A stretch of DNA of 10,267 nucleotides from a virus (taxonomy: Duplodnaviria; Heunggongvirae; Uroviricota; Caudoviricetes). Position numbers: made by a program. Position 1 is the stretch's first letter. Each line of letters opens with the position of its first letter. Below are positions 6,001-9,000 of the stretch, piece after piece. The DNA is taken from IMG/VR virus record IMGVR_UViG_2671180906_000011; one strand, given 5' to 3'.

Positions 6001-9000
6001 TGACCCGATAAGCCGCCGTAAAAATCCACCGGAAACAGAAGAAGAGGACGAGCTTGACCGCCTGGAATAAGTACGCAGAAGACGTAAAAACGGGCAAAAT
6101 TCCGGCCTGTAAACGGTTAAAACAGGCTGTTAAACGGTACTTTTCGGACCTTAAAAGCCCCCTTTACACGTTCGATCGTGAGGTTGTGGAGCGGTTTATT
6201 GCCTTTTCCAGGGTGTGCCCGCACGTAAAAGGACCGATGCGTGGCAGACCCATTGAGCTGGAGCCGTGGCAGCAGTTCGCCTTTGCGTGCATCCTCGGCT
6301 TTAAGGTTAAGGCCACCGGACGGCGCAAATACACGAGCGCCTTTATCGAAGTGCCGCGCAAAAATGCGAAATCCACGACCGCCGCGATTCTGGCTAACTG
6401 GTTTCTGATTATGGAGAACGGTCAGCAGGATATCTACACCGCAGCGGTGAGCCGTGACCAGGCGCGGATCGTGTTTGATAATGCGCGTCAGATGTGCCTT
6501 TTATCCCGACCGTTACGCAGGCGGGTGAATATTCAGGCGCATAAGGTGATACACCCGAAAAGCAACAGCCTGTTAAAGCCGCTGGCAGCAAAAGCGGCAA
6601 CCATCGAGGGGACAAACCCCAGTCTTTCCATCGTGGACGAATACCACCTACACCCCGATAACGGCGTTTATTCCGCGCTTGAGCTGGGGATGGGCGCACG
6701 TCCCGAAGGGCTGTTATTTGCCATTACCACATCGGGCAGTAACGTCGTTTCAGCCTGTAAACAGCACTATGATTATTGCTGCCAGATCCTGGACGGCGAA
6801 GAGGTTAACGATTCAATTTTTGTACTGATTTACGAACTGGACGACGAAAACGAGGTTGATGATCCGGCGATGTGGATAAAGGCGAACCCTAATATTGATG
6901 TTTCCGTGGATCGTGAAAAACTGGCCTCAACCATCCAGAAAGCGCGGGGTATTCCGTCGCAGTGGGTGGAGATGATGACAAAGCGATTTAATATCTGGTG
7001 TCAGGGGACTACCCCGTGGATGGGTAATGGTGCATGGGCTGAGTGTGCCGGAACGTTCACGGAGGAAGATTTACACGGTCAGGAGTGTTACGCGGGGCTG
7101 GACTTATCATCAACCAGCGATATTTCCAGCGTATGCTATGCCTTTCCGGTCGGTAAAACCATTATGCTGATTTCCCGTCATTATCTGCCGGAGTTCCAGC
7201 TACAGAACCCCGCCAATAAAAACCGCGCTGTCTATCGCCAGTGGGCTAAAGCGGGCTGGATACGCACAACGCCAGGTGACTGCATTGATTACGACCGGAT
7301 CAGAGATGACATCATGCAGGATGCGGAGAAATTTAATATCAGGCTGGTGGGCTTTGATACGTGGAACGCCACGCATCTCAGGACGCAATTACAGGGGGCT
7401 GGTTTTGAGGTGGAGCCGTTCCCGCAAACCTACCTCAGATTCAGTCCGGCGGCGAAATCGTTCGAAGTTTTTGTTAACCGCAGGGTGATTGTGCATCGTG
7501 GCGATCCGGTGTTGTCCTGGTCGATGAGTAACGTCGTGATGCAGAGTGACGCGAACGCCAATATCAAGCCGAACAAGAAAAAATCACCGAACAAGATAGA
7601 CCCGAGCGTAGCGGCGCTGATGGCGTTTGGTACATTCCAGGCAGAGCATGAGGATTTTGCTTTTGATATAAGCGACAGCCACCGCCAGAAACTGGAAGAA
7701 TTTAGCGGGGTGTAATGAGGTCAGCAGCATGACAGAAGCCGAAATACTGCGATTAATCCGCCGCGTCTCTGGAATCAGCCAGCAGGCTGACGAACAGACC
7801 ACGCAGCCGGACAGCGTGACAGCCGAAAATTATGCGCGTGTTGTTGCTGAGGTGATGCGCCGTGATGGTATCCAGCTTAATGATGCGGATATGCGCGACA
7901 TACGGATCCGCGTTCTGGAAATGCTGGCCTACAATCGCCGCGTTGAACTGTATCGGGAGAAGGAGAAAATCACGTACCACTGGAAGAAGCCGGAGCGGTT
8001 ACGGCGGTAACTCACTGAGATTAAAGCAAAGCGCAAAATTGCGCTGGCTACATCCCTCACATCTGAGGACTGTTAACCAGCAGGCCGGAATATATTCAGA
8101 AACTACGAAATTTTCGCAGTTTAATTACTCGTCAGCTTAATCGCTAACCCGCTCTGATATTTTCGGAAACCTCAATTTGAGGAAGTCGGCGAGGTAACTG
8201 TTTGATATTCCCGATAGCGCAAAGATGCGCGGTCGGGCAGAATGACCACCACCTCAATCGTGACGGAGAGTGACAACCAGTGACACACCGTGACAAAAAG
8301 ACGGTTTAACCGTTCATTAAAAATCGACGTGATTTTGTGCTTTCCGGATGACGTGGCCAACGTCATTTTTTAGCGAAAAATTCTGATTAAGGTCACTGGC
8401 TGAACGGTCATAATGACCACGCAGACCATCGAGGCAACCATAGCGATCATCGTTACGGTTGGAGCTTTTCCGCCATTGGTGGAAAAGGTGCACATCTGGA
8501 TCATCATTACGGTGATCAAGGGTATGTAAAACCCACCAGCCTGATTAAAGGTTAACCGGAAAAAAAATCCGGTAGCCCCGTTATGGGGATCCCCATATCG
8601 ACATTAACGCCCCTCATGAATTGGTGCGCTTCCCCCTGGAAAGATTACCCGCCTGTATATTTCTTGTGTCTATTTGTTCCACGTTGTTTCATACAGTGCA
8701 CCGAACGGTGTAGTTAATGGTGTAGTCAATTTGCGATTTTTGGCACTTTTTCAATGAAAATTGTTTGATCGAATCAATGACTTGATGTAGTGGTAAAAGG
8801 ACATATTTATTCATCTTTCGGCGCAGAATGCTGGCGACCAAAAATCACCTCCATCCGCGCACCGCCCAGCATGCTCTCTCCGGCGACGATTTTACCCTCA
8901 TATTGCTCGGTGATTTCGCGGGCTACCGCCAGCCCTACACCTTGCCCAGGGCGTAAAGTATCAACCCGTTGACCACGGTCGAAAATGACCTCTCGCTTGC

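Follow-up and report, generated by a model that had tools for sequence, protein, structure and literature searches.

The stretch of DNA analysed here (the window; 10,267 nucleotides, IMG/VR record IMGVR_UViG_2671180906_000011) is E. coli/Shigella DNA. It carries the capsid and packaging genes of an integrated element, then the last gene of that element (orf93), then 796 bases (positions 8011-8806), and then phoQ, which is encoded on the minus strand and reaches the right end of the window. With a probability of about 0.9, the 796 bases are the non-coding right end of a capsid-forming phage-inducible chromosomal island (cf-PICI) integrated at the known PICI site between roxA (ycfD) and phoQ. 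The initial annotation, made from the sequence of the window, had placed an element-chromosome junction immediately downstream of phoQ, followed by about 0.8 kb of structured non-coding DNA and then the element's terminase. The junction was confirmed, and the stretch is indeed structured and non-coding, with no credible gene and with real palindromes and repeats; the terminase does lie upstream, but the nearest convincing gene is orf93. The junction is thus real but ordinary, both the att site and the kind of island having been published already.

To fix the insertion point, the window was aligned with the phoPQ loci of K-12 and other E. coli. Identity with all 5426 complete E. coli genomes begins at window position 8799, and identity with K-12 at 8802 (1 single-nucleotide polymorphism in the core), which places the junction 0-8 nt from the phoQ stop codon. 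The boundary is the 10-bp segment GGACATATTT (8799-8808, the attR core), whose last 2 bases are the 2nd and 3rd bases of the stop codon, so that core and stop overlap by 2 nt. The segment occurs once within the window. It was also found at the roxA-side junction (attL) of related islands (loci L002, L003, L008 and L038-L043) and in the empty attB of strain EC25; the empty site of K-12 has GGGCATATTT instead. Table S1 of Fillol-Salom 2018 (ISME J, PMC6092414) gives GGACATATTT as the att core at 'ycfD-phoQ' for EcCICFT073 and EcCIRM12579, and the ends of EcCICFT073 as published there coincide with the two core copies located in CFT073 (L008). The attR core of the window matches the published EcCICFT073 core in sequence and in location. 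A target duplication had been proposed as a check, and the same 10-bp core does stand at both ends; it reflects conservative site-specific integration, not a duplication of the transposition type.

In K-12, roxA follows phoQ after a gap of 75 bp, in line with the short intergenic region given in the initial annotation, and the list of open reading frames (ORFs) likewise agrees that no roxA-like ORF is present in the window. Its further suggestion, that the native terminator and downstream gene had been replaced or displaced, held for displacement only. When a protein that the island encodes within the window was used for a look-up, six loci were found (L038-L043). Four of these (L038, L039, L041 and L043) were cleanly assembled and 99.96-100% identical to the window. 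L040 was equally close, with its roxA and int regions present only as fragments, and L042 matched at only 88-96% identity with many gaps; the fragments of the one and the gaps of the other are probably sequencing errors. The four clean loci share the order potA-pepT-roxA / int-alpA-...-D5-type primase-...-capsid...TerL-orf93 / phoQ-phoP, with the core at both junctions. In them roxA is intact (373 amino acids, JmjC and WHD_ROXA domains) and adjoins int; it is intact also in L002, L003 (O157:H7) and L008 (CFT073). The 67 bases from roxA to the core are the same as in K-12, and are found at the opposite end of the island, 14.7-15.6 kb from phoQ (core to core, 14,739 bp in L038 and 15.6 kb in L002). 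Because near-identical genomes have a second core beside an intact roxA and a tyrosine integrase, the comparison indicates that roxA is displaced by about 14.7 kb and not replaced, with no loss of host DNA. Folding of the native 75-bp intergenic region gave a long hairpin with an 11-bp stem and no U tract, overlapping the roxA start. As this hairpin stays with roxA, no canonical terminator was lost, contrary to what had been suggested as possible. In carriers of the island, island DNA takes over the 3' flank of phoQ from 8 nt past the stop codon.

The element itself was classified from its genes. The cf-PICI set of capsid, protease, portal, connectors, HNH, TerS and TerL is present in that order, with a prohead protease of HK97 type, a small terminase of the P27 family and a large terminase at 6054-7715, and the RefSeq annotation of L002 (an island 97% identical) agrees with these identities. 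The window covers only the right two-thirds of the island. Among all called genes between the two cores of L038 there are no tail or lysis genes, and int, alpA and a replication module lie at the left. This is the proteobacterial gene order described for cf-PICIs by Alqurainy et al. (bioRxiv 10.1101/2022.09.08.507074), and by gene content and order the element classifies as a cf-PICI. Its integrase has the Pfam domains Arm-DNA-bind_3 and Phage_integrase. Six attB sites in E. coli serve the cf-PICIs, and classical PICIs share four of these (10.1101/2022.09.08.507074); the roxA-phoQ site with a related integrase (89-95% identity) is used by classical PICIs that include EcCICFT073 and O157:H7 OI-51/CP-933C. 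Coordinates of the features and the sequences of the junctions are given in the table.

Table. Features of the window around the phoQ junction, and empty and occupied att sites (core in capitals). Positions are those of the window.
Feature	Position	Strand	Description
Capsid/packaging module	1344-7715	+	Major capsid, prohead protease, portal, head closure, connector, HNH, TerS, TerL (ORFs and Pfam)
orf93	7729-8010	+	Last island gene, 93 amino acids, directly after TerL
Block A, degenerate repeat, two copies	8004-8049, 8193-8230	+	Each with GGCG(N)GGTAACT and a palindrome
Block B	8050-8192	+	143 bp, several 5-7 bp hairpins, flanked by the block A copies
Block C, portable module	8231-8399	+	Four phased GTGAC motifs, then a terminator hairpin
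Terminator-like hairpin	8346-8371	+	Stem-loop, then six T (8366-8371); strand of the packaging operon
Block D, conserved right arm (P arm of attP)	~8400-8798	+	In every related island examined, including those with other cores
~85-bp segment	8657-8741	+	Direct repeat flanking the core of the reconstructed attP; holds the arm repeats
Tandem 12-bp arm-type repeats GGTGTAGTTAAT GGTGTAGTCAAT	8707-8730	+	Period 12 in TRF
attR core GGACATATTT	8799-8808	+	10-bp crossover/identity segment, island/chromosome boundary
phoQ	8807-10267	-	Complete ORF of a 486-amino-acid sensor kinase; its stop lies at 8807-8809 (complement)
Empty site, K-12			gtatGGGCATATTTattcatc
Empty site, strain EC25			gtatGGACATATTTattcatc
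Left junction, L002 (97% identical island)			gtatGGACATATTTtatcaatt
Right junction, window			aaaaGGACATATTTattcatc

Occupancy of the site was counted in the complete E. coli genomes with a 301-bp probe across the attR-phoQ junction (≥80% covered) and a second probe across the empty roxA-phoQ site. The junction was present in 600/5426 genomes and the uninterrupted roxA-phoQ site in 4822/5426, so that the site is occupied in approximately 11% (about 1 in 9).

The 796 bases between orf93 and phoQ hold only short ORFs (≤64 amino acids), none of which belongs to a Pfam or PHROG family. In the 1145 complete genomes that carry parts of the stretch, RefSeq has nearly no annotated gene under it. The covariance models of Rfam 15, run over the whole window on both strands at E ≤ 1, returned no match. 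BLAST (distant mode) against 50,697 phage records gave nothing either; the trailer is island-specific, not phage-derived. The sequence from the orf93 stop to past the core was compared across 35 loci, drawn from RefSeq genomes and 28 IMG/VR contigs (40-nt bait). Measured to a marker at window 8585, a fixed point of the arm, the orf93 stop lies 305 to 631 bp away, and the arm was kept in 17 distinct islands while the length of the spacer varied. On this comparison the stretch is made up of two parts, a variable mosaic spacer (8011-8399) and a conserved integration arm (~8400-8798).

Conservation of the arm (block D) was assessed from alignments of 13-17 distinct islands. It is nearly invariant at ~8530-8735, and has hairpins at 8465-8487 and 8555-8573 and overlapping palindromes at ~8576-8598 (+ strand fold, z = -3.1). 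Among the three arm hairpins, only the pair 8472/8480 varies on both sides (C-G 8, G-U 5, A-U 4). This weak covariation fits a symmetric protein site equally well, and an RNA structure is not claimed for the arm hairpins, one covarying pair being too weak. The tandem 12-mers of the arm have counterparts at the other end, where GGTGTAGTTAAT is found twice just upstream of int (L002 5724-5747; L038 3877-3900), and repeat pairs were present at both ends of every island checked. An attP was reconstructed by joining window 8400-8808 to the int-proximal arm of L002. In a k-mer comparison of the reconstructed site, the ~85-bp segment recurs at a constant 227-bp offset; it contains, besides the 12-mers, a second motif, TTGTTCCACGTTGT (8674-8687). 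From their position and from the domains of the enzyme, the 12-mers are predicted to be bound by the island integrase (Int) through its N-terminal arm-binding domain.

Islands at other sites were used for comparison. Those not at phoQ (L005, L009, L010, L018, L021-L023, L030, L034 and L036) mostly read ATAACAGCA, which is the published tqsA core (PMC6092414, Table S1). The tqsA-site islands keep the whole arm, with the repeats changed to GGTGTAGTCACT/GGTGTAGTCATT. Their integrases (L010, L021 and L036 compared) are 89% identical to the phoQ-site enzyme, and the differences fall mainly in residues 1-50 (14/44) and 100-200. Such co-variation of the repeats with the N-terminus of Int would be expected of an N-terminal domain that reads the 12-mers. 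The phoQ-site and tqsA-site islands form a natural specificity-switch pair. A separate observation concerns EcCIDI14, whose listed 'att site core' CGGTGTAGTTAATGGTGTAGTTAATT (PMC6092414, Table S1) is identical to the arm-type repeat of the islands studied; going by that identity, the listed core may be an arm repeat rather than a crossover core.

An integration model that accommodates these features can be outlined. In lambda and P4, attP has a short core between arms with direct arm-type repeats bound by a separate N-terminal domain of Int; integration duplicates only the core, and where the target is at the extreme 3' end of a gene, the gene is restored. By its sequence, the island at phoQ shares this design, with two differences: where P4 uses a tRNA gene, the target here comprises an intergenic region and the end of a protein-coding gene, and the arm is long (up to ~400 bp). 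The island's own P4-type tyrosine integrase would recombine attP and the chromosomal attB within GGACATATTT. The attB core begins 8 nt downstream of phoQ and extends two bases into its stop codon, so that integration regenerates the stop and leaves one core per end (attR in the window; attL beside roxA). The ~400 bp next to the core would be the P arm of attP, with the arm-type sites of Int at 8707-8730 and the same pair mirrored upstream of int. The further conserved palindromes of the arm probably serve accessory DNA-bending or recombination proteins.

The spacer is a mosaic. The palindromes of block A are AGCGCAAAATTGCGCT at 8030-8045 (-12.4 kcal/mol) and AGCGCAAAGATGCGC at 8216-8230, and its first copy starts inside the orf93 stop-codon region (CGGCGGTAACT). 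The number of block A copies among islands is 1-4, and L004 has lost exactly the DNA that lies between the two copies of the window. In block C, the GTGAC motifs start at 8260, 8270, 8280 and 8290, an exact 10-bp phase of one helical turn (TRF period 10), and the cluster (8260-8294) is the sole one of its kind in the 20-kb locus L038; the spacing suggests a protein-binding array. Block C is present in some phoQ-site islands and recurs in islands at clpS and yifB; in each case it follows an orf93 homologue, and in L030 and L044 it begins ≤~75 nt from the orf93 stop. It is absent from EcCICFT073 (CFT073) and O157 OI-51, and in tqsA-site islands unrelated sequence is found instead. The nearness of block C to the orf93 stop in L030 and L044 agrees with a role as 3' trailer and terminator for the packaging operon. 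The stretch 8011-8399 is probably the recombination-scrambled trailer of the last island gene, made up of duplicated orf93 3' ends, a hairpin block and a portable terminator module.

The initial annotation had placed a terminator at 8348-8371 that might stop transcription of the element from running antisense into phoQ. The hairpin with its T run (8346-8371) is real and a plausible terminator, but it belongs to a module found in only some islands. It has a 9-bp stem (two G-U; 7 Watson-Crick pairs) and a 5-nt loop (-13.5 kcal/mol, z = -2.8), that is, a stable G+C-containing stem-loop directly followed by a U tract as in rho-independent terminators; a consensus terminator scan did not list it. 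No other canonical-looking terminator lies on the + strand from orf93 to phoQ, and no promoter-like site on that strand was found between this hairpin and phoQ. The hairpin would stop the rightward packaging operon before attR and phoQ. In the PICI papers, rightward island genes are expressed after helper-phage induction via AlpA, and because of this an antisense effect on phoQ, if there is one, would be limited to cells with phage induction under way.

Several points weigh against reading 8011-8806 as an integration arm and trailer of this kind. The attL site, int and roxA all lie outside the window, and the left end was taken from near-identical genomes; for this copy the reading comes from sequence comparison. 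About 130 bp of the arm (8400-8530) is farther from the core than in typical attP arms and has two or three sequence variants, and part of it may have another role. The terminator module is absent from experimentally mobile islands, EcCICFT073 among them, and hence is not essential. The reading gives no account of a role, if any, for the phased GTGAC array and for the stacked repeats and hairpins of the trailer. Finally, the copy in the window has a stop in its capsid gene and has lost the terS start; it looks defective and may no longer be mobile.

Other explanations of the stretch were weighed against the same comparisons. Had insertion cost the strain host DNA, with the native phoQ terminator and roxA replaced, the window would lack roxA and its phoQ 3' flank would differ from K-12 from 8 nt past the stop, both of which are seen. 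This is nevertheless hardly credible, since roxA and the full roxA-side intergenic region are intact at attL in 8/8 fully readable islands (including the four 99.96-100% identical loci), the core is the same at both junctions as conservative recombination predicts, and the roxA-phoQ probe was matched in all 5426 genomes, including the 600 with this junction (occupied-site examples, e.g. H93 and H94, through the roxA half only). Equally improbable in the extreme is a decayed remnant of an older second island integrated in tandem. It would account for the copy of the int-upstream segment with arm repeats at 8657-8741 and for the duplicated pieces of the spacer, but the window holds no third copy of the core, tblastn found no int fragment outside the annotated int, and every island, the experimentally mobile EcCICFT073 included, has a single repeat pair to either side of the core, at set distances, as in a normal attP. 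The tandem island was rejected for want of a third core and an int remnant.

A hidden accessory gene was also considered, in the form of a toxin-antitoxin-like pair with a minus-strand promoter (8530-8503), a hydrophobic peptide (~8370-8450) and a + strand hairpin RNA as antagonist. There is a promoter-like site on the minus strand followed by a hydrophobic ORF of 26-49 codons, and PICIs often have accessory genes at the 3' end (PMC6092414). Promoter-like sites were, however, not above shuffles (1 found vs 1.6 expected). The ORF differs from that of L003 by five non-synonymous and zero synonymous changes, is interrupted in frame by a stop in L025, and has other sequence in its place in L005 and L008; no Pfam, PHROG or Rfam family supports a toxin-antitoxin reading, and PGAP annotates nothing there in nearly all genomes. 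With no sign of purifying selection and a stop in a relative, the ORF was rejected as a toxin or small-protein gene, and an accessory gene is very unlikely. Much the same low probability attaches to the region as the packaging (cos) site of the island, a reading prompted by its nearness to the terminase genes and by the repeated motif GGCGGTAACT, which occurs in two to four copies in different islands and is faintly like lambda cosN GGGCGGCGACCT. In cos phages that depend on HNH, for example HK97, the cos site is located between hnh and terS. The first GGCGGTAACT copy is simply the orf93 stop-codon region, and the lambda- or PICI-type motifs cosQ (GGGTCYTTYC) and cosN (GGGCGGC(G)ACCT) have no match in the window, whereas the same patterns find both upstream of orf93, flanking a small gene, in L003 (O157 OI-51) and L008 (EcCICFT073). 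The two cos sites of EcCICFT073 have been shown to be functional, and the founding cf-PICI paper (10.1101/2022.09.08.507074) does not define a cos site. Moreover, the non-coding end is common to islands with lambda-type terminases and to those with their own HNH/P27-type enzymes, and so is not specific to a packaging system. A cos site in 8011-8806 was rejected on the motif search, on the position of cosN and cosQ in EcCICFT073 and on the sharing of this end across packaging types.

The right end of a cf-PICI at the roxA-phoQ site can be compared with two published islands. EcCICFT073 of strain CFT073, the prototype Gram-negative PICI (PMC6092414), has the same att site and core, an integrase 95% identical, an orf93 product with 91% amino acid identity, and the conserved arm with the same 12-mers at about the same distance from the core. 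Unlike the island in the window, it is without portal, large terminase and HNH, has two lambda-type cos sites and uses helper capsids and terminase; its spacer is 329 bp and is without the GTGAC/terminator module. O-island 51/CP-933C of O157:H7 (z1835-z1857, just before phoQ; Flockhart et al. 2012, PMC3378721; PMC8565820) has the same roxA-phoQ site, core and arm, and shares orf93 and ~70% of the non-coding end at 88-89% identity; it differs in being a classical PICI with an insertion sequence before int and without block C. In O157:H7 FRIK2533 (L003 5231-6557), an IS3-family element lies between attL and int and severs the start of the integrase gene region. OI-51 is known for RgdR (ECs1581), a regulator of the locus of enterocyte effacement, of 99 amino acids with an RGD motif at residues 20-22 (PMC3378721; PMC8565820). 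As a candidate for RgdR, orf93 was rejected, its product having 93 amino acids vs 99 and no RGD motif. orf93 matches a function-unknown PHROG (phrog_1561, 1.5e-55) and no Pfam family. It stands immediately upstream of the conserved arm in 34/35 loci, in classical and capsid-forming PICIs alike; a search of GTDB representative genomes with orf93 returned one close relative only, giving no cross-species depth.

EcCIEDL933 and other cf-PICIs (10.1101/2022.09.08.507074) have the same gene order (capsid, protease, portal and connectors followed by hnh-terS-terL) and likewise carry no genes for tails or lysis, and the full-length relatives of the window island resemble them further in length (~15 kb) and in having int, alpA and replication genes at the left. 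L038 has a D5-type primase as its replication gene, and L002 has a RepA helicase. Unlike the published cf-PICIs, the window copy has a capsid gene broken by a nonsense codon and a shortened terS, and it may be immobile. Helper-phage induction and transfer in small island-made capsids fitted with helper tails characterise the class; for this copy, transfer is doubtful on account of its defects. An in-frame TGA at 2169-2171, where L002 has TGG (Trp), splits the major capsid gene into pieces of 275 and 109 amino acids. Because the same split is called in the near-identical L038 and L043, the capsid gene is probably a real pseudogene, and this copy of the island may be unable to build capsids. Between HNH and terS, at ~5671-5672, 91 bp of L002/L004/L005 are missing, apparently by deletion between two CCCCGCC repeats. 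With it go the start codon of terS and the larger part of the DNA between hnh and terS, the expected place of a cos site; the deletion is common to L006 and L038, in which TerS is called as 108 amino acids.

Some further observations concern the window as assembled. A segment of ~340 bp (722-1061) is present in L038/L040 and absent from L039/L041/L043, an indel polymorphism of the central region bounded by a short repeat. Window 1-59 fails to align with loci whose identity from position 60 on is 99.96%, and may be a rearrangement, the edge of an insertion element or an assembly join. Two N runs (4846-4917 and 5714-5762) disagree with the distances in L038 (13 nt, and an overlap of 17 nt, respectively), the second being flanked by duplicated AGCAGTGGCGGG; their appearance is that of gaps between the scaffolds of a draft assembly, not of masked bases. 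phoQ is 99.7% identical to K-12 phoQ at the DNA level and is annotated as phoQ in every matching RefSeq genome. The sole difference in the protein is at residue 64 in the periplasmic sensor domain (window 10076-10078), which is Gln here and Lys in K-12 and L002.

PhoPQ is a major regulator of virulence and of stress responses, and in about 1 in 9 genomes the phoQ 3' flank is replaced from 8 nt past the stop. For these two reasons an effect of the island on phoPQ mRNA ends, which is possible, deserves attention; nothing found here points to such an effect. A reading of the GTGAC array, hairpin repeats and terminator as a modular insulator or regulatory RNA region, setting the flow of transcription from the island to phoQ and from phoPQ to the island, is unlikely. 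If it were true, variants of the region and the replaced phoQ 3' untranslated region would tune PhoPQ output in ~11% of E. coli/Shigella, including O157:H7 and CFT073. For annotation, the stretch after phoQ should be given as attR and the non-coding end of a PICI, and not as an unexplained gap or a deletion of roxA. For the islands, one conserved integration arm serves classical and capsid-forming PICIs alike, and this arm co-varies with the N-terminus of the integrase upon a change of target site.

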